From assembly GCA_963745075.1 (NCBI GenBank), contig CAVUWV010000008.1, positions 448,001 to 512,000 of the forward strand: a stretch of DNA of 64,000 bases, in the 5' to 3' direction. The notes under the pieces are model-generated. The model saw nothing but the letters and a program-made list of their open reading frames with translations. It was not told the DNA's origin and did not search any database. This DNA is from Candidatus Hydrogenedentota bacterium (GTDB taxonomy: Bacteria > Hydrogenedentota > Hydrogenedentia > Hydrogenedentales > SLHB01). Every line of letters begins with the position of its first letter. The stretch's first letter is position 1. Positions 14,402-24,580 of this stretch are shown here, piece after piece. Made by a program: the position numbers and the translations under genes.

Positions 14402-14449
14402 TACGGACCGGTGGTGGGTGCTTCGGCTTCGACGTTTGGCCCTTGGCTC

Positions 14450-14473
14450 GGCGGGTTGGAAAACCCGCCCTCC
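14450..14473 (+). repeat. REP family B (GGCGGGTTGGAAAACCCGCCCTCC)
   Basis: Hairpin; identical 24-bp copy at 20788-20811. Confidence 0.85.
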
Positions 14474-14483
14474 ATGGGGAGGA

Positions 14484-14675
14484 TCATTCGTCTTCCTGGT
14501 GGGTATCAACGTCGACCTGGCCGTTTGCGTCGACGGTGGCTCGGATTATGATGGGGCGACAGCAGACCTCGCAGTCTTCGACATACTCCTGGTCAGGGGT
14601 GCTGCAATCGATGACGAGTTCGATGGGCGCGGCGCAGTAAGGGCAGCGCGTGGGGACGGTTTCGGTGGCGCTCAT
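14484..14675 (-). CDS. CPXCG-motif cysteine-rich small protein
   Basis: CPYCA...[14 protein letters not shown] signature. Confidence 0.85.
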
Positions 14676-15062: not shown

Positions 15063-15425
15063 TCAGATGTTTCCTTTGGCCTGCTTCACCAGACGGTTGA
15101 TCCAGAGGTCGATGTAGTCGCCGCCGACTTCGGCGATAACATTGATGCCTTGGGTGCGGCCGAAGGTGACGGCGGCGTCGCGGGCGAGTTCACGGGCGCG
15201 GCGGCGTTCGGCGGAGGTGAGCTTGCCGTCTTCGCTGGCTTCTTTGATGGCGCGGACGTAGGTCTGGTAGGTCTGGTCGACGCCGGCTTCGAGGGCGGAT
15301 ATGGCCTGGGCGTAGCGACGCTCTTTGGCCCGCTGGTACCAGTCCCGGGATTTGAAGAAGGTCCAGGCGGCGCCGAAAACGGTGCCGAGAAGGGTGATGC
15401 TGGTATCGGAGACGAGAGATTCCAT
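15063..15425 (-). CDS. Holin-like protein (LL-H-type architecture)
   Basis: Single N-terminal TM, AISALEAGVDQTYQTYVRAIKEASEDGKLT helix, last gene of cluster; AAGGAG RBS. Confidence 0.55.
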   Translation of the reverse strand: MESLVSDTSITLLGTVFGAAWTFFKSRDWYQRAKERRYAQAISALEAGVDQTYQTYVRAIKEASEDGKLTSAERRRARELARDAAVTFGRTQGINVIAEVGGDYIDLWINRLVKQAKGNI

Positions 15426-15449
15426 GAGGGGACTCCTTTGGTTGGTTTC

Positions 15450-15538
15450 ACTGGGAGCGCCATGCACCAGCGCGGCGAGTGCCGGGGAACACCTGCGGTA
15501 AGGACCAAGACGCCACGCTGGTGCATGGCGCTCCCAGT
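15450..15538. repeat. REP family A inverted pair inside the phage-like cluster
   Basis: ACTGGGAGCGCCATGCACCAGCGCGGCG / CGCCACGCTGGTGCATGGCGCTCCCAGT. Confidence 0.85.
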
Positions 15539-15594
15539 CGATTTACACGGACCTGCACGGACGGACACGGACAACAAATGCCGGAGTGCAGGAA

Positions 15595-16116
15595 CTACAA
15601 GAAGGTTCGGGCGTCGATAATGTAGCCGTTGATGGCGTCGTCGGTGTTTTTGATGGCGGCCATGCCAGGGCGCACATAGAGGTGCGCGAGGGCGAGGGCA
15701 TTGCTCGACGGGCTCGGCGCGACGGGCGACGCGGCTTCGGCGCCGGGGACGATGCTGATATCCCAGGTTTCGAGACGGGCTTGCACGAGATCGATGCGGG
15801 GGTTCGTCGTGGGCGGCGTGACGTCGGGCGTGGCGGTCTCGGATTCGAGGCGGTACGGGAAGCGCCCGATAAAGGCGTAGCCAGGTTTCACGTTCACGGA
15901 CAGGCCGGGCACGTCCGCGGCGACAACTTTCAGATCGTCCGTCGCGGCTTTTCGAATGACGCCGTCGCCGCCGCCCCAGGCCTGGCTGAGCAGGAAGTGG
16001 ATGAGTTCGAGGGCGGCCTCGATGCGGTCGTCCCAGGAGTTGAGTTTGGACGAGGCGACGGGGCGTTCCGCAAAGGTCCAGGAGGTCTTGGTGTAGGCTT
16101 TGCCTTTGATCGCCAT
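15595..16116 (-). CDS. Baseplate/tail-fibre-anchor-like protein
   Basis: LKVVAADVPGLSVNVKPGYAFI...RIDLVQARL...LALAHLYV...IIDARTF pattern resembles N-terminal domains of phage tail/receptor-binding proteins; follows Tal-like gene. Confidence 0.6.
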   Translation of the reverse strand: MAIKGKAYTKTSWTFAERPVASSKLNSWDDRIEAALELIHFLLSQAWGGGDGVIRKAATDDLKVVAADVPGLSVNVKPGYAFIGRFPYRLESETATPDVTPPTTNPRIDLVQARLETWDISIVPGAEAASPVAPSPSSNALALAHLYVRPGMAAIKNTDDAINGYIIDARTFL

Positions 16117-16144
16117 TTCGAGAATCCTTTCGGGCTGGGGTTTT

Positions 16145-17899
16145 CTAGTCGAGGTGGTAGCCGGCGTCGAGACCGACGTCGTCCGCATCGAGGCGGAACT
16201 GGAAGAGCTCCGTTTCGCGGGGTTGGCTGCGGACGGTGAAACTGAGCGGATTGGCGACGGAACGCAGCGGGGACGTAAATCGGATACGGGTTTGGAGGTG
16301 CGCGCCGGAGAAACGGTGGACGATTTCCTTCACGCGGGCGACAAGCACGCCGGGAAACCGGTCGCCCCATTCACCGTCGACTTCGCGGTCGAGACGGCGG
16401 AGGACGCCACCGCGAAGTTCGACGAGATCGCCTACGGACACGTCCGCAAACCCGTCGTAGTATTCCACTTCGTCGGAGGGCTCGGGATAGGCGATGTCGT
16501 CGAGGAGGCCTTCGACGAGTTTGTCGGCGTCCTCTTCGAGGGAGATGCCGAAGTGATCGAGCGAGCGGGCGTAGAACCCGAAAGCGTCGATACTCGCGCC
16601 GGCCCAATAGGTCTTTTCCAGTGTGCCGGTGATGGGATTGCCATCGAAGTAAACGGCGTTGATGAGGTCGCTTGAATCGGACCCGAGTGTCACGCCCATG
16701 CGCGTGGGATCGAAGAACCAAACGCGGTCGGGGCGTGTAGCTCGGCGAAAGCTTACGCGTAGCTCCGGATCGATGGACCAGATGAAACCACCCGCGGCAT
16801 AGGCCAGCGCGGTAAGTGCTTCGAGGACGCCGCCGGACGCGTCGAAGTTCACGAGAGAGACGCTCGTGCTGTCGACGGAGTCTGCCTTTGGGCCGGGGTA
16901 TGAGAAGAAATCCTTCAGCTCCATCTCAGGCACAAGGCATTGGCCGTCTTCGTAGAGATAGACTTCGGCGAGTCCCTGTTCAACGAGGGCGGCGTTGAAA
17001 CATTCGCCGCCGCCGAAGACGAGGCCGAGGTAGCGACCGTAGACGTCAACGCGATCGTCGAATGCGCCGCTTGCGTCGCGATGGGGGTTTAGTTCGATGA
17101 AGTCGATACCCTTGGTGTCGATGAGCGACTGCAACGCGGCCGTCGCGGCGTCCGCCTTCAATTTGTAGCCGCTCGCGTTGTATCGGTCGGTGGTCCAGTC
17201 TGCGACTTCTGGGTGGCGCGCGATGGCGTGCGAGTTCTTGTCGGTCTCCTCGGCATCGATGAGCATGAGGCGGACGTCGGGCCAAGGCGCGCCATCCACT
17301 TCGATGCCCGCGATAGTGTCGCCGTCTTTGGCGTAGGCATTGGTGAGGTCGAGTCGATCGCTGCCGACCCATTGGCCCGCGTCGATACCACCGTTTGCGA
17401 GTTCGTTCGTGTCCGTCTTACGTGCGAGGAATTTCTGGTATTCGCGCGCGGCGCCGTCAGGGTAGGCCGTGTGGGCGACGGTGTAGTGAATTGCACCCGG
17501 CGCGCTTTGGACGGCGTCTTTGACGATGGCGTCGATGCTGCGGTTCGTGTAGACGCGGGAAATCGTGGTGTTGCCGTCAAGGGGATCGCGCGCGGCGGCG
17601 AACTCGATGATTTCGTGGAACGTGACGTATTTCTCGAGAATGAGTTTGCGCGTTTCGCTCCATTGCGGTGCGATCTCCGTGACGGGCGCTTCGCAGAAAA
17701 GTTGCCCGTCGATCAACACACGCACCCGATAGCCGTGGCCAAGATCGGTGATACCTTCGGGCAACAGGCCGCGTACCCGATCCGCATCGCCGGGCCAGGT
17801 ACGGATTGCTTCCAGTAACGGCACGTCCGCGTAGCGCCCGATGCGCCGGCCTTCCGTGTCATAGATTTCGATAGCGTAGTTCACGTCAATCACCACCAC
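16145..17899 (-). CDS. Tal/baseplate-hub-like tail protein with inserted staphylococcal nuclease (thermonuclease) domain
   Basis: Follows Dit-like gene; internal KDGDTI..VRLMLIDAEET..DVYGRYLG..FNAALVEQGLAEVY; start may be 17893 or 17884. Confidence 0.75.
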   Translation of the reverse strand: MVVIDVNYAIEIYDTEGRRIGRYADVPLLEAIRTWPGDADRVRGLLPEGITDLGHGYRVRVLIDGQLFCEAPVTEIAPQWSETRKLILEKYVTFHEIIEFAAARDPLDGNTTISRVYTNRSIDAIVKDAVQSAPGAIHYTVAHTAYPDGAAREYQKFLARKTDTNELANGGIDAGQWVGSDRLDLTNAYAKDGDTIAGIEVDGAPWPDVRLMLIDAEETDKNSHAIARHPEVADWTTDRYNASGYKLKADAATAALQSLIDTKGIDFIELNPHRDASGAFDDRVDVYGRYLGLVFGGGECFNAALVEQGLAEVYLYEDGQCLVPEMELKDFFSYPGPKADSVDSTSVSLVNFDASGGVLEALTALAYAAGGFIWSIDPELRVSFRRATRPDRVWFFDPTRMGVTLGSDSSDLINAVYFDGNPITGTLEKTYWAGASIDAFGFYARSLDHFGISLEEDADKLVEGLLDDIAYPEPSDEVEYYDGFADVSVGDLVELRGGVLRRLDREVDGEWGDRFPGVLVARVKEIVHRFSGAHLQTRIRFTSPLRSVANPLSFTVRSQPRETELFQFRLDADDVGLDAGYHLD

Positions 17900-18576
17900 C
17901 GGTCGTGGACCGACACGACCGCTTCAGCGTCGTGGGAGCTGGCAGGATCGTCGGTGTAGGTTAGCGTCGTCCCTTCCGGTGCGATCTCGGGGAAAAGACC
18001 GGTCGTGTAGGGCGTCACGTCGACGCCGTCGAGGGTGACGCGGGAATTCGGCCCGTCAAAGATCAGCACGGACGCGGAGGACACAACGCCATTGTAAAGG
18101 ATGCTCCAGATACCATCAGAAATGGACGGATTGATGAGATTGTCGTTTGCGGTGATTGTGATTGCCGGTACGGAGGTGTAGTTACCGCCGGCGGATACGA
18201 CAAGGGTCGCGCCGGAGGCGTTGATGGGCCAGTTCTCGCTCGTGGGATCGACGGACCGCTCGTAAGGATCGCGGGCGTGGAGTTTCAATGTGAAGTTGCC
18301 GACGCGGGCGTCGTTCGCGATCTCGCGTTTGAACTCCGTGCGGCGGACGTAGAGTTCGCGGTCCGTGCGAATGGAGAGCGCGGCGGTGTAATCCTCCGAG
18401 GACACCGCGTCGAGAATGGCGTCGAGTTTGGTTTCGATAGCGGCGGCGGTGGACTCGCCCACGATGAGTCCGGCGATCTCGATGACGCGCTCGCGGCGGC
18501 CGCCGACTTCCTGGTGCGTCTCACGGACCGTGGTGTGGGCGGGATCGAAGGTGTGGTTTCCCAGCGTAATGGCCAC
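17890..18576 (-). CDS. Distal-tail (Dit)-like protein
   Basis: FTLKLHARDPY, GNYTSVPAITIT, LINPSI, GLFPEIAPEG and C-terminal DRWW resemble siphophage Dit; GTG start with GGAGG RBS. Confidence 0.6.
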   Translation of the reverse strand: MAITLGNHTFDPAHTTVRETHQEVGGRRERVIEIAGLIVGESTAAAIETKLDAILDAVSSEDYTAALSIRTDRELYVRRTEFKREIANDARVGNFTLKLHARDPYERSVDPTSENWPINASGATLVVSAGGNYTSVPAITITANDNLINPSISDGIWSILYNGVVSSASVLIFDGPNSRVTLDGVDVTPYTTGLFPEIAPEGTTLTYTDDPASSHDAEAVVSVHDRWW

Positions 18577-18579
18577 GGG

Positions 18580-18996
18580 TTAGTCCTCCCCGAGGATGGG
18601 GGTCGAACCGGTCGCGTCGGCGGGGATGCGGGCAGGGGCATCGCGGAGGTACGGTTCGAGGACGTACCACGCCTGCTTTTCCGTGAGGGCCGCGACGCCG
18701 GTCAGTGCGCGGAAGCGGTTGCCATCCTCGACGCGTTGGCCGCCGATAGCGACGTTTTTCTGGGCGAAGGCGTCGTGGGCCGCAAGGGACCGGAAGAGGT
18801 ACGCACCCGCGAGCAGAGTTTCGCCGGAGACGAGACCGGGGTCGGGGGATTCGGTGTCGACGTCGGGATCGATCTGGCGGAGGATGTTGCGGTGCGCGTC
18901 GTCGATGGCGGCGACGACGAGGTCCTGGGGGACGGCGACGGTGTCGTTGAGCTGGAATTTGAGGCGGACATCGGCTTCGGTGGTGAAGTTGGGCAT
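18580..18996 (-). CDS. Head-tail connector/adaptor-like protein
   Basis: 138 aa helical protein directly after the capsid gene, FTTEADVR N-terminus; GGAGG RBS. Confidence 0.6.
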   Translation of the reverse strand: MPNFTTEADVRLKFQLNDTVAVPQDLVVAAIDDAHRNILRQIDPDVDTESPDPGLVSGETLLAGAYLFRSLAAHDAFAQKNVAIGGQRVEDGNRFRALTGVAALTEKQAWYVLEPYLRDAPARIPADATGSTPILGED

Positions 18997-19018
18997 GGGC
19001 GGAACCTCCGGGAAGAAG

Positions 19019-19057
19019 AACACGGACCTATACGGACAAGCACGGACGGACACGGAC
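19019..19057 (+). repeat. 10-bp-period (C/T)ACGGAC tandem array
   Basis: Units start at 19021, 19031, 19041, 19051. Confidence 0.85.
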
Positions 19058-19177
19058 AAAGCAACCGAGGCCACCGCACGAGCCGCGCGAACAGCAGCTT
19101 TTGGCGGGGCCTGGGGCCTCTTGTGGCGTAGAGGCCCCAGGCGTGGGCCGGATGGGCGGGTCCGGCGAGGAGATTCG

Positions 19178-20227
19178 TTAGGACCAGTCGCTTTGGACGA
19201 CGACGCGGGCGTCTTTGTAGATCACGGCGAAGTCGGTGACGACCGTGAGGTAGGTGCGGTCCCACTGCTGGTTGATGAGTTTGTCGTTCTCGACGAGCAG
19301 GTCCTGTTCGGTGAGTTTCTGGACCGTGTATCCGGCGTCGAGGATAGTCAGTTTATCCGTGGGCTGATCGACCATGGGAACGAGACGCACGCCGAGTGGA
19401 GTGGGCAGGTTGCCGGTCTTCGCGAAGTCGAAGAGGACGGCATCCTTGAGTTCGGTGAGTCCCAGGATGGTTTGCGCCAGCGCCGAGTTTGCCAGCATGT
19501 GGGTGGGCGTGAAGTACTTGTCCAGCGTCAGGGTCATGAACCCTTTGACGATGTCCGCGTAGGTCCACGTGTCGGCGGTGGCGGTGTTCACCGTGGGCGC
19601 CGCCGTGCCGCTGCCAGACGAATCGCCGCTGACAAGGACCGTGGCCAGGCGCGCATCGAGATTGCGACCGAGGCGTTCGCCGATGCGTTGCAAGTGGACG
19701 CGGAGCATGTCGACGGACATGCGGCGGATGACTTCGTAGGACGCGACCACGCCGCGGCCTTTCTTGTCGAGGCGGACGATGCGGTCGCCGTAGGTGATCT
19801 CCGATTCAGGGATCGCGGCGCCTTCGGCGACGGTGCGCAGTTCCTCTTCGGCGGACGCTTCGTCGACGTAGGGCACATCGTAGGCCGTGCTCGATACGGG
19901 TTCGTCGCGGATGATGAGTTCGGGGTAGACCGGCTTGCGCTTGAGACCGGAAACGACGGCCTCCCGCACGATGTCGGGAAAGAGCCATTTCGCGTTGGGG
20001 TCGCTCTGGAAGAAGCGGTCGACGGTAATGCGGTGTACGTCGACGCCGAATTCCTGGGCGCAGTAGTCGGTAAGGGTGGTGCCGAGGGCGCGAAAGTACT
20101 GCCCGTGGGTCAGGCCGAGGGCGCCGAGGGTGTCGTACAAGTCGTGGCCGCGCGTCTGGCGGAGCCGGTCGGGCTCCTGGCTCAGGAACGCGAGGCGTTC
20201 TTTGACGTTGTCGTCGCGGTAGGGCAT
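19178..20227 (-). CDS. Major capsid protein (HK97 fold)
   Basis: 349 aa; LFPDIVREAV, VAEGAAIPESEI, LDKKGRGVVASYEVIRRMSVD, LVENDKLINQQWD; position in head operon. Confidence 0.88.
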   Translation of the reverse strand: MPYRDDNVKERLAFLSQEPDRLRQTRGHDLYDTLGALGLTHGQYFRALGTTLTDYCAQEFGVDVHRITVDRFFQSDPNAKWLFPDIVREAVVSGLKRKPVYPELIIRDEPVSSTAYDVPYVDEASAEEELRTVAEGAAIPESEITYGDRIVRLDKKGRGVVASYEVIRRMSVDMLRVHLQRIGERLGRNLDARLATVLVSGDSSGSGTAAPTVNTATADTWTYADIVKGFMTLTLDKYFTPTHMLANSALAQTILGLTELKDAVLFDFAKTGNLPTPLGVRLVPMVDQPTDKLTILDAGYTVQKLTEQDLLVENDKLINQQWDRTYLTVVTDFAVIYKDARVVVQSDWS

Positions 20228-20336
20228 GTGGGATTCCTTTGTTATTGGCTCGCGCTTTGCGCTCGCATGGGATCGATTACGAGTACGATTACGAGCACGA
20301 GAAGAAGATGGAGGTTAATGATGAGGTTGAGTTGGT

Positions 20337-20717
20337 TTAGAGCAGAACGTGAACCTTGCTTGCTCCGCTGTCGACTTTGAGGTTGCGGCCGACGCCGTTG
20401 CCGGAGGCGGGGGCTTTGACGGTGCCGTCGGTGGCGGAGGCGAGAATGCCGGCCTCGCCGTCGACGGTGGGCGCGGAGCCCGTGTAGGTGAAGATGCAAA
20501 TGCCACGGACCTTGATGGGAATTGCGACGCCGTTGTCGTCGGCGTCCGCCAGGGCTTGGCCGAAGACCACGTCTTCGTCGTCGGTGGCATTGTTCACTTC
20601 ATAGGCGCCGGTGAGCTTGACGGCGTCGCCCGCGGCGATGTCGATGGTGCCGCTGGCGGGGGTTTTGCAGGTGATGACGAGTTCGGTGACCGAACCGCCT
20701 ACGTCTCCGTATGCCAT
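20337..20717 (-). CDS. Capsid decoration/cement protein (DUF2190-like)
   Basis: 126 aa beta-rich, IAAGDAVKLTG..FGQALAD..IKVRG; immediately upstream of the capsid gene. Confidence 0.65.
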   Translation of the reverse strand: MAYGDVGGSVTELVITCKTPASGTIDIAAGDAVKLTGAYEVNNATDDEDVVFGQALADADDNGVAIPIKVRGICIFTYTGSAPTVDGEAGILASATDGTVKAPASGNGVGRNLKVDSGASKVHVLL

Positions 20718-20787
20718 TTTGCGTCTCCTTGTTTGATCACTTCGGTGTGGGCTTCTCTATGCTTGCGCCTATCTGGGCGATGGGTTA

Positions 20788-20811
20788 GGCGGGTTGGAAA
20801 ACCCGCCCTCC
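20788..20811 (+). repeat. REP family B copy inside the phage-like cluster
   Basis: Identical to 14450-14473. Confidence 0.85.
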
Positions 20812-20960
20812 TTTGAGGGACGAAAGGGACCTAAAGGACGGGGAGAAAACCGACGCGCTGCTCGATGTCCCCTTGGTCCTTTTGGTCGTTTGGGTCCTTT
20901 GGATTGGGAGAGGCCCAGTCCTATGGTCCTCATCGATTAGCGCCGCGCGTTGCACTGCGG

Positions 20961-21656
20961 TTACGCCGGGTCGCGGAGGATCGTCATGGCGCGATTTTGG
21001 TCTCGCGTGGTCTGTGTCAGCGGCTCCGGTCTGGATGTGGGGCTCGGGGGATATTTGTTGTCGAACCGGATCTCGTAGGCGCGGAGGTGGACATGGATCT
21101 CGTCGAGGGAGAGTTGGGCGAGGGTCCGGCGCCAGAGCGTGTCGTCGAAGGACGGGCCGTCGAGTTCGCGGCCGAGCCCGCAGAAACGTTCGATGGCGCG
21201 GGTGCGGGCGGTTGCGCCGTCGGTGATGAGGCGAGCGGCGTCGTGTTCGCGCGCGCCGGCTTCGTCCAGGGCGTGGCGGATGTCCCGGACGGCGGCGGGG
21301 GGCAGGCCGTCGACGCGGCGTGCGCGGATGACGCGGGATTCGCCGTTGCTGTGGAGGACAAGGGCGCGCTCGTCTTCGGTGGATTCAAGCCAGTGGTAGG
21401 TGCCTGCTTCGAGGCAAATGGCGTCGCCGGGCTGGTTGAGCCAGCGGAGATCGTGGGGCGCTTTTTCGGTCGCCCAGGGCTTGCCGTCGAGAGCGGTGGC
21501 GTCGATGCGCCAGCCGGTGAGGCAATCGCCGAATTCGAGGCGCAGATCGAGGTGGGCGCCGATGGCGTCGCGGTGGCGGTGGATGACGTAGCGGCCGTCT
21601 GGGGTGGTTGGGCGCAACGTGGAATCGGGGGTTTCGGTGGTGAGGGTCCAGTACAT
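20961..21656 (-). CDS. LigD-type 3'-phosphoesterase domain fused to a helical scaffold-like C-terminus
   Basis: RYVIHRHRDAIGAHLDLRLE..LTGWRI..KAPHDLRW..EAGTY resembles PE-domain FVxQxH..HxDxRLE..W..H..GTY; AAAGGA RBS before ATG 21656. Confidence 0.65.
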   Translation of the reverse strand: MYWTLTTETPDSTLRPTTPDGRYVIHRHRDAIGAHLDLRLEFGDCLTGWRIDATALDGKPWATEKAPHDLRWLNQPGDAICLEAGTYHWLESTEDERALVLHSNGESRVIRARRVDGLPPAAVRDIRHALDEAGAREHDAARLITDGATARTRAIERFCGLGRELDGPSFDDTLWRRTLAQLSLDEIHVHLRAYEIRFDNKYPPSPTSRPEPLTQTTRDQNRAMTILRDPA

Positions 21657-21690
21657 TGAGGGGGTCCTTTTTTGGGTGGGCGGCGGCAGA

Positions 21691-21729
21691 AACACGGACT
21701 TACACGGACAGCCACGGACGGGCACGGAC
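21691..21729 (+). repeat. 10-bp-period CACGGAC tandem array
   Basis: Units at 21693, 21703, 21713, 21723. Confidence 0.85.
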
Positions 21730-21739
21730 CAATGCGGCT

Positions 21740-21952
21740 TTACGCGTGAAGCAGCTGCTGGCCGAGGGAAATGACCACCGCGACGAGGTTGGCGACAAGG
21801 AGGAGGACGCCTCGTGCGAGCGTGGTTTCGAGGTCTTGGACCCGCGCTTTCAGTTCCTTGATGTCTTCGGCGAGGTTGTTGACCTGAATCTCGTAGACGA
21901 TGCCGTATGGGCAGCGTTCCGTGTCGCAGGGGGCGGTTGCGTTGCTATTCAT
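21740..21952 (-). CDS. Small coiled-coil plus C-terminal TM protein (70 aa)
   Basis: LAEDIKELKARVQDLETTL coiled coil then GVLLLVANLVAVVISLG; start overlaps the protease stop. Confidence 0.6.
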   Translation of the reverse strand: MNSNATAPCDTERCPYGIVYEIQVNNLAEDIKELKARVQDLETTLARGVLLLVANLVAVVISLGQQLLHA

Positions 21953-22644
21953 GGGACCACCATTTGCGGGGGCAAAGTTCGATGGGTTCGTGGTAGGCGT
22001 CGCGGGCGACTTTGAGAGCTTGGTCGAGGGGGAGCGTGCGTTTGGCGCGTTCGGCTGCGACGAAGCCGGTGCCCTGCGAACCGGAGGAGACGACGGAGCC
22101 TTCAATAACTTCGAGGACGTTGCGCATGATGTAGTGGCATTGGTGATCTCCGTAGGTCTTGCCGGGGACGTGGTCGCAAGTGCGGAGGTCTTTTGCGCAG
22201 ATCGAGCATTCGGGTGTTTCGAAGGAAAAGCCGATGGAGGTCTCGCGATACACGCCGCCCTCGATGTTCAGGATGAAGTCGGCGTTGTCCTGGGTGCGGA
22301 GCACGTAGAACGTCGGGCCGCACGGCGACGCGCGCGCCGTCGTGATGGAGCTGGGATCGGAAGAAAGTGCCGCGCGGCAACGAACCGCGCAGATCGTGGC
22401 GCTCCATCAGCGGACGGCCTGGGGTCATGGCGCTGATCGTTTCGAGTTCGTCGTCGGGGAAGCGGCTGTGGTGCCGGTCGATCTGGTTGTGGCAGAGGTC
22501 GAGGGTGAAGACCGCGAACTCGTGCGGTTCGAGGGGGCGCAGGGCGAAGCGGTTGACCTCAGCGGCGCTGCTGTCGTCATCGGCGCGGGCGCGGACGGCG
22601 ATGAGGGCGCCTTCGCGGCGGAATACAAAGGGATCGAGATCCAT
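21945..22644 (-). CDS. Prohead maturation protease-like protein with Cys/His motif, split by one extra base at ~22309
   Basis: LCHNQIDRHHSRF..MERHD..VRPDV / YVLRTQDNADFILNIEGGVYRETSIGF..CSIC..CDH..CHY..EGSVVSSGSQ; removing one base (GACGTTCTAC to GACGTCTAC on the minus strand) joins both ORFs. Confidence 0.7.
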
Positions 22645-22681
22645 GGCGGTGCTCCGTGTTGTTGTCGGGTAGTCACTGACC

Positions 22682-22769
22682 GGAAAAACAGGGACAGACA
22701 CCAATTGCCGTTGGAAGTTTGGGTGAGGCAAACGTTCTTGGGGCAATTTGAGTCAGTCCCCATTTTTCC
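22682..22769. repeat. REP-like inverted pair (GGAAAAATGGGGAC type)
   Basis: Arms 22682-22709 and 22742-22769; related arm at 63948-63972. Confidence 0.7.
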
Positions 22770-22899
22770 AAGGGGCATACATGGGGACACCTGTCGGCCC
22801 GGTGGACATATACTTATTGATTATTCAGGGGCTAACGAGTGCCCCCATGTATGACCCTTGCGATTGCGGATTGCGGACTTCGAATTGCAGATCGGAAGA

Positions 22900-23057
22900 A
22901 CATCCCCCTTGATCCCCCTTCAAAGGGGGAGTTCGGCCAGCGTCGTCTATTAGTATGTGCGCGGTGACATGCTCCGAACCGAATTCTTTTGGCGAACCTA
23001 ACGCAACGCGAAGCGTTGTGGGAGATTCCCCCTTTGAAGGGGAATTAAGGGGGATGT
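22900..23057. repeat. REP-like inverted pair (ACATCCCCCTTGATCCCCCTTCAAAGGGGGA type)
   Basis: 33-bp arms 22900-22932 and 23025-23057, each with an internal hairpin. Confidence 0.8.
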
Positions 23058-23064
23058 GCATTTC

Positions 23065-24324
23065 CTATCCGATGCCGAGGGTTTTGGCGGCTTCTTCGTG
23101 GGTGAGGAAACCGTTTTCGCGGAGTTGGACGGCGTTGGCGATCTCGCGCTGGCGGGCGGTGGCTTCTTTGAGCACGTCGACGGTGCGGTTGGCGCGCACA
23201 TGGACGCGGGCCTCGGCGTAACCCCACATGAGCGCGAGTTCGAAGTTGTAGAGCCGTTCGAGGATGCGTTTGACGCTGCGGTTGACGGCCTCAACGTGGC
23301 GGTTGATGATTTCGAACTGGGCGGTGCCGTAGGTTTCGGTGGTGCCGTAGTTGCGGCCGAGGAGGATCGGCATGAGGTGCATGCCGGTGATCACCTGTTC
23401 CTCGATGGCCTTGTGGTTGTCGTAAAAGATCTGCGCGTGTTGGTCGCCGCGAATGAGATTGACGCGCACGTTGTCGAAGGTGACGAAATTCTGATCCGCT
23501 TCGAGTCCGGACAAGCGATCCCGCAGCAGATCGAAGTTGCCCTGGATGCGTTCTTCATAGGCCTCGGCGGATTCGCCGCGGGCGCGTTCGTCGGCGGTGT
23601 ATTGGACGTGGAGTTTGGACCAGCCGGCGTTGTGGGTGGCTTTGGCCATATCTTCGAGGAGGCGCTGCTGGATCTTCACGACGAAGGGGATAGACCGCAG
23701 CATGGAGCGGCCGTAGGGATTGGTGCCGTCGCGATCGAGACCGACGTAGATGAACCGTTCGGGCGGCAAGGGGATGGCCTCGCCGTCGAGGATCTGGTAG
23801 GGCCGGAGAAGCCCGTCCTCACGGCGGAAGCGAACGGTCCAGACGTCGACGGGGAGGACGTCGAAGATGGATTCGCGGCTCTGAGAAAGCACGATCTCGA
23901 CCGCGGCGGCACCGTAGGTGAAGAGCGAGGTGTAAAACACATCGAGGAGACCGTCCATGCCGCGGTCGCCGGAATTCACGCGCCTGTCGAGTTCGTGGAG
24001 GAGGCGTTGCGCGCGGCGTTTGGCGGCGTCGGACGACGGGTTGAGGATCTCGATGTCGTAGCCGGTCTGGCAGAGGCGTTTCCAGGTCCAGACGGCGTCG
24101 GAGATGTCGGGGATGGCGTCGCGCAGGAAGCGGTAGACCTGGAGCATGCCGAAGGGCGTATCGTTGGGGAGGGCGACGAACTCGCGGGGAATGCCCTGAA
24201 AGGCGCGCTGGTCTTCGGCGAGGGACGCGGGGAACAGGGCGCCGCCGCGCTCGCGGGTGGTGAAGGTTTCGGCGCGGGGCGCGGGCTTTGGGGGGCGGCG
24301 GAGGCGTTGGAACCAGTGGAGCAT
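23065..24324 (-). CDS. Phage portal protein
   Basis: About 420 aa; YRFLRDAIPDISDAV, YGAAAVEIV, NPYGRSMLRSIPF, ILLGRNYGTTET, GFLTHEEAAKTLG; first gene of head operon. Confidence 0.8.
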   Translation of the reverse strand: MLHWFQRLRRPPKPAPRAETFTTRERGGALFPASLAEDQRAFQGIPREFVALPNDTPFGMLQVYRFLRDAIPDISDAVWTWKRLCQTGYDIEILNPSSDAAKRRAQRLLHELDRRVNSGDRGMDGLLDVFYTSLFTYGAAAVEIVLSQSRESIFDVLPVDVWTVRFRREDGLLRPYQILDGEAIPLPPERFIYVGLDRDGTNPYGRSMLRSIPFVVKIQQRLLEDMAKATHNAGWSKLHVQYTADERARGESAEAYEERIQGNFDLLRDRLSGLEADQNFVTFDNVRVNLIRGDQHAQIFYDNHKAIEEQVITGMHLMPILLGRNYGTTETYGTAQFEIINRHVEAVNRSVKRILERLYNFELALMWGYAEARVHVRANRTVDVLKEATARQREIANAVQLRENGFLTHEEAAKTLGIG

Positions 24325-24580
24325 ATCGGGGTGATCCTCAGGTGTTGGTTTCATTGGTTAGGCACGGGGCGTTGCATGGAGAAGGCTGGAGACCGGAGTC
24401 CGGAGGCTGGAAGGGACAGAGGCGCAGCCAGGACATAGGTAACAGACTCGGACTGACACGGACGACCGAGACGGCCGCATGCTGGTGCTAGTGCTTGGGT
24501 AGGTGATGGGGTCGAAAAGATTTGGGAAATGGCTCATAATTAGAGGATTCCTTTGGGATATGACCGTGGAGGGCTGGATA

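Follow-up and report, generated by a model that had tools for sequence, protein, structure and literature searches.

A cluster of 11 co-oriented genes in a genome of Candidatus Hydrogenedentota encodes the head and the tail tip of a siphophage-type virus. The stretch analyzed, hereafter the window, comprises 64,000 nucleotides (nt) of assembly GCA_963745075.1 (contig CAVUWV010000008.1, positions 448,001 to 512,000), and all 11 open reading frames (ORFs) of the cluster lie on its minus strand at 15063-24354. The head genes code for a portal, a protease-like protein, a decoration-like protein, an HK97-fold capsid protein and an adaptor resembling gp6 of HK97, and the tip genes for a distal tail protein (Dit), a Tal-type hub and a baseplate-like protein. 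We found that all genes of the cluster are under purifying selection, single-copy and syntenic across the phylum. As judged from sequence, two of the proteins appear to carry nucleic-acid enzyme domains with conserved catalytic columns, and no canonical terminase, tape measure or tube appears to be linked to the cluster or conserved elsewhere. The explanation that we favor, with modest confidence, is that a siphophage structural module was captured by an ancestor of the Hydrogenedentota and inherited vertically as a unit, and that it would now build an enzyme-armed, terminase-independent particle released by lysis.

The genes are listed below from the high-coordinate end. The original prediction, which was made from the letters of the window, had described 11 phage-type genes in one orientation, and each of them was found on the minus strand. 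Comparisons involve 76 related loci, recorded as Candidatus Hydrogenedentota (a few under evident placeholder names), whose ORF boundaries were set with a simple script.

23065..24354, minus strand: portal protein (PF06074, phrog_3753); the probable start at 24324 gives 419 amino acids (aa)
21945..22644, minus strand: prohead-protease-like gene, split in two frames (phrog_16951, hhalign)
21740..21952, minus strand: 70-aa protein with a coiled coil and a C-terminal hydrophobic helix (from its sequence; orthologues in 52 loci)
20961..21656, minus strand: PE protein, with a LigD-type 3'-phosphoesterase (PE) domain at ~21324-21611 (profile against PDB)
20337..20717, minus strand: decoration-like or auxiliary head protein, 126 aa (phrog_4588)
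19178..20227, minus strand: HK97-fold major capsid protein, 349 aa (PF25209, phrog_3922, TIGR01554)
18580..18996, minus strand: head-tail adaptor of the HK97 gp6 or Mu neck type, 138 aa (AlphaFold2 (AF2) model and VIA-align)
17890..18576, minus strand: distal tail protein (Dit), 228 aa (phrog_33, profile match to 2x8k)
16145..17899, minus strand: Tal or gp27-like hub, 584 aa, with an inserted staphylococcal nuclease-type (SNase) domain at ~16910-17353 (AF2 model, Foldseek, PF00565)
15595..16116, minus strand: baseplate or fibre-anchor-like protein (p173), 173 aa (phrog_9534)
15063..15425, minus strand: holin-like protein, 120 aa, with an N-terminal hydrophobic helix (phrog_13712, weak)

Several of the head proteins were recognized directly by family searches. 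The portal protein matched PF06074 (Portal_Mu) at 6.7e-10 and phrog_3753 at 4e-47 and has a median identity to its relatives of 72% (58 loci); its translation probably starts at 24324 rather than 24354. The capsid protein matched PF25209 (4e-15), phrog_3922 (4e-52) and TIGR01554 (33.9 bits, with a cut-off of 27.5), and the decoration-like protein, with 123-128 aa in the loci examined, matched phrog_4588, described as 'virion structural protein', at 1.4e-8. In one related locus (L036:11142-12233) an ORF of 363 aa is inserted between the capsid and adaptor genes, and a second decoration-like match is located directly after the portal gene.

The adaptor was assigned by structure. Its AF2 model (pLDDT 84.9) is a four-helix protein, and a VIA-align search against 48,161 chains retrieved the neck subunit of Mu (5ydn; Z 9.4, root-mean-square deviation 2.9, 93 residues aligned) and gp6 of HK97 (3jvo; Z 9.2), with 91-93 of 96-109 residues covered. 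For helical bundles, the tool itself advises that Z values below about 13 do not decide the matter; however, 12 of the 15 top rows were neck or adaptor chains of phages, and the adaptor gene follows the capsid gene. The Foldseek result for this protein was weak (E 0.1), and its profile had no match among PDB sequences.

Both halves of the protease-like protein match phrog_16951, whose function is unassigned in PHROGs, and the intact orthologue in L009 does so at 3.4e-34. By hhalign, the profile of this protein aligned with the N-terminal ~200 aa of a 378-aa protein of Enterococcus phage fHoEfm07 and of a 403-aa protein of Bacillus phage vB_BcM_CUBc25 (probability 95% and 97%), each encoded at the corresponding place in its phage genome; the fHoEfm07 counterpart is annotated 'head maturation protease' in its record. 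It is because of these alignments to the N-terminal parts of phage proteins, one of them so annotated, that we call the protein protease-like. The phage homologues carry an extra C-terminal part (378-403 aa, versus ~230 aa here). The following gene, for the 70-aa protein, had no family match below E 0.005.

The PE protein contains the first of the two putative enzyme domains. A profile built from 24 orthologues matched PDB chains 3p43_A (2.9e-7) and 3p4h_A (5e-5) and, marginally, Pseudomonas LigD. An H..H.D.R.E block was aligned with solved phosphoesterase domains, and a K..H downstream of it is also conserved; D37, R39, K65 and H68 are invariant and H28 and H35 nearly so. The His, Asp, Arg and His columns are presumably the catalytic ones. 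Family models gave less: 17 of the 24 orthologues matched the LigD_N Pfam family weakly (best E 4.4e-4), none reaching the 31.1-bit cut-off, and TIGR02777 scored 18 bits against a cut-off of 144.

The C-terminal ~120 aa of the PE protein are helical, and no family was found for them. Comparison with the C-terminus of the phage protease proteins by hhalign gave E values of 0.005 and 0.016 with the same motif, at probabilities of only 7% and 3%, and an Atlas lead (0.83) pointed to Mu-like protease clusters. These similarities hint, as a lead only, that the PE C-terminus may be kin to the scaffold-bearing part of phage protease proteins. Gene context is the stronger link between PE and the protease or scaffold: the protease and PE genes are fused in one frame in L061, L065 and L069, where the small membrane-protein gene is missing. 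L072 and L073 are also without the small gene, and no protease ORF was called in either. Of the 'PE-scaffold' protein of the original prediction, a LigD-type phosphoesterase is supported by profile, and the scaffold part is hinted at.

Among the tip genes, Dit matched phrog_33 at 3.3e-12 and, under the cut-off, PF22768 at 1.3e-3, and its profile matched gp19.1 of SPP1 (2x8k) at 1.4e-5. The hub was modeled with AF2 at pLDDT 86.6 and pTM 0.82, and Foldseek retrieved hubs of extracellular contractile injection systems (eCIS), type VI secretion systems (T6SS) and phages at E 3e-13 to 1e-7, with target-normalised TM-scores (TMt) of 0.55-0.59 to 1wru, 3d37 and 3cdd. By fold, its relatives are gp44 of Mu, gp27 of T4, phage Tal proteins, VgrG and injection-system hubs. 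The second putative enzyme, an SNase domain, is inserted in the hub at about residues 183-330 and matched PF00565 with 27.8 bits (cut-off 21); both halves of a solved nuclease align with its profile. Across 21 orthologues, the D192-G-D-T, R210, D215 and R289 columns show little or no variation; they presumably correspond to the Ca-binding and catalytic residues of staphylococcal nuclease. We found no phage record matching the hub-nuclease or the PE protein.

The last two genes are less well defined. The 173-aa protein matched phrog_9534 (1.2e-7) and four other PHROGs, in each case over residues 74-183 only; its Atlas leads were Caudo_bapla_N, BppU and DUF4815, all below 0.9, and its profile gave only a chance-level match in PDB. 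The holin-like protein predicted originally has a weak match to phrog_13712, 'holin' (E 0.0099). In 22 of 42 loci in which this slot is covered, including head-only loci, an endolysin-like gene of 154-161 aa precedes the holin-like gene, sitting between it and the p173 gene (or the capsid gene). Two of three endolysin-like proteins tested matched phrog_894, at 2e-6 and 9e-6. The label 'M15 peptidase', considered for this gene, was unsupported by Pfam and was dropped, PHROGs pointing to endolysin phrog_894. Clusters that end in the endolysin-like and holin-like pair outnumber those without it, and this ending is probably ancestral.

Distribution, descent and variants

Of the phylum's 135 species genomes, 115 gave a match to the capsid profile, as did 78 of the 86 high-quality ones, nearly always in one copy, and both genomes outside the order carry the gene. 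Among 41 relatives compared protein by protein, 36 have the capsid protein, once each, with identities to the window copy of 88-95% (genus), 70-84% (family) and 60-79% (order). These identities follow those of RpoB (Spearman 0.86, n=34; the relatives are not independent, and the p-value means little), which agrees with the expectation that capsid divergence should track the species. For every other cluster gene, too, identity to the window and capsid identity are correlated (rho 0.44-0.74). In all 52 loci of at least 12 kb, whichever of the genes occur have the same order and strand as in the window, so that the predicted synteny holds for the cluster itself; its genomic position is common to the genus only. 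Protein lengths are near-constant: mostly 347-352 aa for the capsid protein, mostly 133-145 aa for the adaptor, 225-228 aa for Dit, mostly 577-587 aa for the hub and 170-174 aa for p173.

Selection was estimated by the NG86 method in 11 pairs of loci. All defined dN/dS estimates, for every gene, fall between 0.00 and 0.39 (four were undefined), well below 1 as had been anticipated, and in the least saturated pair (L030/L083, dS 0.19-0.47) the values for ten genes are 0.000-0.143. The capsid and decoration genes (19178-20717) stand out by their dS with congeners, 0.43-0.50 compared with 0.9-1.3 for their neighbours; such a pattern would be in keeping with highly expressed genes whose codon usage is strongly constrained.

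In a library of 1.84 billion representatives (50% identity), the family is reduced to a single full-length entry scoring 671 bits, and the second-best full-length match has 180 bits. The nearest phage records are 24-33% identical in the capsid and 21-31% in the portal. No locus was found inside a complete prophage, and the flanking gene families are each common to at most 8 of the 76 loci. In the viral contig collection, the cluster itself is represented by two fragments only, both of them IMG/VR entries. Among public sequencing runs, three DNA runs from one study matched, with shares of 0.07-0.10 of the cluster. A full-text literature search found no description of the cluster, and it is not mentioned in the matching passages of PMC9377139 and PMC10866078.

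These observations bear on one alternative, namely that the cluster is a decaying prophage remnant or a misassembly. Such an origin could be suspected from the one frameshift in the protease-like gene, from the repeat of the repetitive extragenic palindrome (REP) type between the portal and protease genes, and from flanks that are unconserved beyond the genus. However, the same gene order recurs in every long locus, in independent assemblies; the frequency of the capsid gene and the range of dN/dS given above are not those of a patchy or decaying element; and rpoB of the same assembly is also split, so that the frameshift is probably an assembly error. We regard a remnant or misassembly as hardly credible. 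The original view of the cluster as a host-maintained module rather than a product of random decay is supported by distribution, synteny, lengths and dN/dS alike.

The tip is distributed more narrowly than the head. The hub profile was found in 90 of the 135 genomes, and some families that keep the capsid gene lack the hub wholly or largely: it is present in 0 of 10 genomes of family f13 (capsid in 10 of 10), in 0 of 2 of f4 (capsid in 2 of 2) and in 4 of 23 of f11 (capsid in 20 of 23). Because both genomes outside the order have the hub, parsimony makes the head-only form a loss. Of five head-only genomes tested, all keep the PE gene and two have a detectable adaptor, and the portal and the decoration-like protein are retained even in these lineages. 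Lineages with the head alone can be set against those that also have the tip, a natural contrast for studying what the tip does. Some high-quality genomes, for example G028 and G133, have none of the cluster genes searched, and G032 and G017 likewise lack the cluster. In L015 and L070, the half of the cluster from the decoration to the holin-like gene was found without portal, protease or PE genes within 9.5 kb upstream, and the cluster may be split into two loci there.

Besides the endolysin-like gene, the loci differ in a fibre-like gene of 400-620 aa, which 13 of 58 loci carry between the protease and small-protein genes. The N-terminus of its product is hydrophobic, a Gly/Asp-rich start is conserved, and the remainder is highly variable. 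The endolysin-like and variable fibre-like genes are probably ancestral accessories, and both are absent from the window.

The head-only variants bear on a further alternative, in which the cluster would form an intracellular, encapsulin-like compartment that confines the phosphoesterase, the portal and tip acting as a gated pore and nothing being released. An HK97-fold shell that adjoins an enzyme gene in the scaffold position, the lack of a packaging motor, and the head-only state of all ten f13 genomes together with the retention of PE in all five genomes tested would all be in line with such a compartment. It is difficult to reconcile with the endolysin-like and holin-like genes that end the cluster in about half of the loci covered, head-only ones included, with Dit, hub and baseplate-like proteins, which are tip parts for contact with a cell surface, or with the absence of portal and protease from known encapsulins. 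We therefore consider a closed compartment very improbable.

Packaging motor, tube and the proposed particle

The original prediction had noted that a terminase, a tail tube, a tape measure and other functions were missing from the window, and had proposed a search for orphan copies elsewhere. This genome is 89.7% complete. Terminase families PF03237, PF03354 and PF17289 gave no match in it, and PF04466, PF20441 and PF05876 gave none above the cut-off in five genomes (this one and four relatives, including the single-contig genomes G035 and G039); one match below the cut-off (18.2 bits) was seen in G035. In the relatives, Terminase_6N was found in 7 of 41 and TerL_ATPase in 4 of 41, all in one family. 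The tape-measure family PF10145 occurs in 10 of 41 relatives and matched only below the cut-off in this genome. Terminase and tape measure thus appear patchy, as is the case for ordinary prophages, in contrast to the capsid (36 of 41). When proteins of the two nearest phages (terminase, tape measure and mid-tail) served as tblastn queries, this genome gave no match. The cluster contains no tube, tape-measure or stopper gene; the claim of missing functions held genome-wide for terminase (six Pfam families) and for one tape-measure family, the families of tube, terminator, repressor and integrase not having been searched one by one. Dit directly follows the adaptor in nearly all loci holding both, and a larger gap occurs in a few, such as L034 and L067.

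On this basis we propose how the products might be assembled. The portal would nucleate the capsid, and the protease-like and PE proteins would enter it as scaffold-type internal proteins. PE lies where related phages have the scaffold part of their protease-scaffold protein, and one clade has it joined to the protease, which makes its uptake into the capsid during assembly probable. The gp6-like adaptor would close the portal and dock directly onto a Dit hexamer plugged by a hub trimer, giving a short tip without a tube on which a Ca-type nuclease would be displayed. Binding would be mediated by p173 and, where present, the variable fibre-like protein, and the holin-like and endolysin-like proteins would release the particle by lysis. 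Most likely the particle would be DNA-free, or at least terminase-independent, and its target would be nucleic acid that is outside the producing cell or at other cells. The ends left by staphylococcal-type nucleases bear 3'-phosphates, which are the groups that LigD phosphoesterases take off; therefore, the two enzymes could act in sequence, the presumed substrate being extracellular or target-cell nucleic acid. Most likely, the system is neither a self-propagating phage nor a classical gene transfer agent.

If the cluster instead encoded a true gene transfer agent, host DNA would be packed by an unlinked and divergent enzyme and delivered by the short tip, the phosphoesterase tidying the ends. 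Vertical inheritance, single copy and purifying selection are as in known agents, many loci have a lysis cassette, both enzymes act on nucleic acid, and the retention of the portal and decoration-like protein in head-only lineages would make sense for a pressurized, DNA-filled head. The lack of a terminase, however, argues against classical gene transfer: searches of five genomes, including two single-contig ones, with six Pfam families found none, and in relatives it is much rarer than the capsid. Moreover, no flanking gene is conserved beside the cluster in the 76 loci, the cluster has no tube, tape measure or stopper, and f13, f4 and most of f11 are without the hub. A gene transfer agent in this sense is unlikely, though less so than the other alternatives.

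The set of missing genes could also be explained by a phage-interference or helper-dependent device, in which proheads and tips would trap the terminase-DNA complexes or tails of an invader in dead-end particles, a satellite logic that became fixed in the chromosome. The functions that are missing (terminase, tube, tape measure) are exactly those that a helper could supply, the hub carries a nuclease, and the fibre-like accessory is highly variable, as an arms race predicts. On the other hand, 10 of the 11 proteins had no match to any defence-system model of PADLOC, and the holin-like one showed only a weak partial match to LeoBC (E 7e-4). It is also hard to see how a phylum-wide system with slow, clock-like divergence would match the terminases of many phages. 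Signs of mobility were looked for and not found: a tRNA scan of the window was empty, a direct-repeat scan found no long direct repeat bracketing the cluster and hence nothing att-like, and no integrase stands beside the cluster among the annotated neighbours, although no search by integrase family was made. Staphylococcal-type nucleases are typically Ca-dependent and extracellular, which likewise counts against interference. Overall, we find an interference device improbable.

Several observations weigh against the enzyme-armed, lysis-released particle that we propose. Eight of the 86 high-quality genomes have no capsid gene, and the three families without the hub imply that the tip is dispensable and that the system as a whole is not essential. 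Flanking genes are conserved within the genus only. The lysis and fibre genes appear incomplete in this genome: the endolysin-like gene is missing from the cluster and has no match in the genome, and the fibre-like gene is not in the window, a fragmentary copy existing only on contig C31 (G000:C31:345285-346051), with matches in differing frames near the contig end. The predicted protease stands by its hhalign similarity to phage protease N-termini; it has no Pfam support (orthologues searched) and no PDB sequence match (profile search), and in this assembly an extra base at ~22309-22310 divides its gene between two frames, 22102-22746 and 21945-22304. Encapsidation of PE is argued from gene position, a fusion in one clade and three weak similarity hints. 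The absence of terminase is that of six Pfam profiles plus BLAST in a genome 89.7% complete, and a divergent or unrelated packaging ATPase could be encoded elsewhere. Finally, no RNA run was found among the public runs matching the cluster, and the particle is a prediction from the genes.

If the proposed particle exists, it may represent an undescribed class of virus-derived structure, with a terminase-free portal capsid, a DNA-end-healing phosphoesterase (PE) loaded via a scaffold-derived tail and a calcium-type nuclease on a tubeless tip, serving as an extracellular device for nucleic-acid processing or delivery that is kept by almost the whole phylum and is head-only in some families. We advance this wider interpretation tentatively and would not call it probable. 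We rate the anatomy as categorically new; a hidden terminase, if found, would make the system a variant of gene transfer agent instead.

Genomic setting, frameshift and repeated motifs

Host genes lie directly on both sides of the cluster, as originally described. On the low side are genes for a response regulator, a histidine kinase, a methyltransferase and a melibiase-like hydrolase, and on the high side those for a DUF5107-TPR protein and two sulfatases. Sharing of flanks is confined to the genus: L009 has the same right flank, and L010 one small ORF. A 63-aa cysteine-rich ORF (CPxC...CxxCC) at 14484-14675 on the minus strand, downstream of the cluster, is kept only in the congener L010 among the loci compared. 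The G+C content of the cluster (0.61-0.66) is similar to that of its surroundings. Spacing is tight, with the adaptor stop 3 nt from the Dit start, which confirms the clean junction reported earlier, and with Dit overlapping the hub start by 10 nt. The clear ribosome-binding sites that had been noted were verified as AGGA/GGAG-type sequences ahead of six of six starts inspected.

The frameshift in the protease-like gene is probably an assembly error. L009, L016 and L017, the three relatives aligned at the site, have a single frame. The rpoB gene of this assembly, ~30 kb upstream of the window, is itself in three frames (G000:C8:415741-419522), where relatives have one frame of ~1290 aa, and it is because rpoB is also frameshifted that we think an error likely. 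Such indel errors probably bear on every apparent frameshift in the window. The public contig pieces that match the cluster do not span ~22309-22310.

Noncoding elements recorded in or beside the cluster include the following:

24371..24376, minus strand: TGCAAC promoter-like motif and, after it, a TA-rich box, located 22 nt ahead of the ATG (24354)
22896..22933, no strand assigned: REP-like palindromic repeat between the portal and protease genes, with a partial second copy at ~23022-23042
20776..20811, no strand assigned: G+C-rich hairpin between the PE and decoration genes (direct repeat family D5)

The REP-like repeat is ~30-38 nt long, and its 16-mers occur ~150-195 times in the genome; this stretch is the only part of the cluster that was matched by contigs of other organisms in public runs. 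The G+C-rich hairpin has a second copy at 14438-14473, downstream of the cluster, and may be a terminator or an RNA-stability element.

The motif ahead of the portal gene is shared by many loci. The form [TG]GCAA[CT] was found in 33 of 50 portal-upstream regions compared with 10 of 50 on the reverse strand (shuffles: mean 10, maximum 19), and within 150 nt in 25 of 49 regions compared with 6 of 49. A second TGCAAC plus TA-rich copy lies just after the PE stop (~20925-20955), upstream of the decoration gene, and was seen in 13 of 65 loci. The motif was considered as a regulon key to unlinked components, and this was rejected: the strict form has 13 matches genome-wide, the same as in shuffles, and a looser form picked out ~9 near-identical promoter-plus-leader elements elsewhere in the genome. 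TGCAAC is probably a general promoter type. Another repeat, GTCCGTG in three to four copies with a 10-nt phase, is present at 15544-15574, 19019-19059 and 21691-21731, upstream of the holin-like, adaptor and PE genes; phased doublets of it gave 101 matches at ~60 other intergenic places in the genome.

Comparison with known systems

The phages vB_BcM_CUBc25 and fHoEfm07 share with the cluster the order portal, protease (or protease-scaffold), small head protein, capsid and adaptor, with Dit and Tal further on, and their portal, capsid and N-terminal protease domain are homologous to those described here. They differ in that a terminase precedes the portal and that five to eight small genes and a tape measure separate the adaptor from Dit. 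Besides, their protease proteins are 378-403 aa long, whereas here a protein of ~230 aa is followed by the small and PE proteins.

Agents of the RcGTA type in Alphaproteobacteria resemble the cluster in being host-fixed phage head and tail genes that are single-copy, vertically inherited and under purifying selection; like them, the cluster appears unable to propagate itself and is predicted to have its product released by lysis. RcGTA has large and small terminase, stopper, terminator, tube and tape measure. In contrast, no motor or tube gene was found linked to the Hydrogenedentota cluster or conserved elsewhere, two of its structural proteins appear to carry enzymes, and it belongs to a different phylum. 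In its evolution the cluster is closest to these agents, although terminase and a complete tail, two features that define them, were not found. Encapsulins are similar in placing an HK97-fold shell beside a candidate cargo enzyme with no DNA-packaging motor; they are not known to encode a portal, a protease, a decoration protein, an adaptor or a tail tip, whereas portal, protease-like, decoration, adaptor and tip genes are present and conserved here. Capsid-forming phage-inducible chromosomal islands also have head genes without a full tail. Those islands are mobile and patchily distributed, encode an integrase as well as replication and packaging functions, and rely on the tails of a helper, unlike the present cluster, which has no mobility, replication or packaging genes adjoining it and shows phylum-wide single-copy inheritance. 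Effector spikes, such as evolved VgrG of T6SS and the hubs of injection systems, have in common with it the hub fold and an enzyme domain on the hub. Here, however, the enzyme is inserted in the hub and not appended to it, there is no sheath or tube, and the hub is predicted to lie beneath a capsid.

Hydrogenedentota is a candidate phylum from which few if any cultured members are known. If correct, the proposal would describe a novel cellular use of a viral capsid and a natural case of an enzyme loaded into a portal-bearing capsid, and it would account for the viral label that virus-detection tools give to Hydrogenedentota contigs, as with the two IMG/VR fragments. Known domestications of tailed phages are gene transfer agents, which keep head, tail and terminase, tailocins and injection systems, which keep the tail only, and encapsulins, which keep the shell only. 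The cluster fits none of these kinds: head, portal and tail tip have been kept, and the motor and tube have not.

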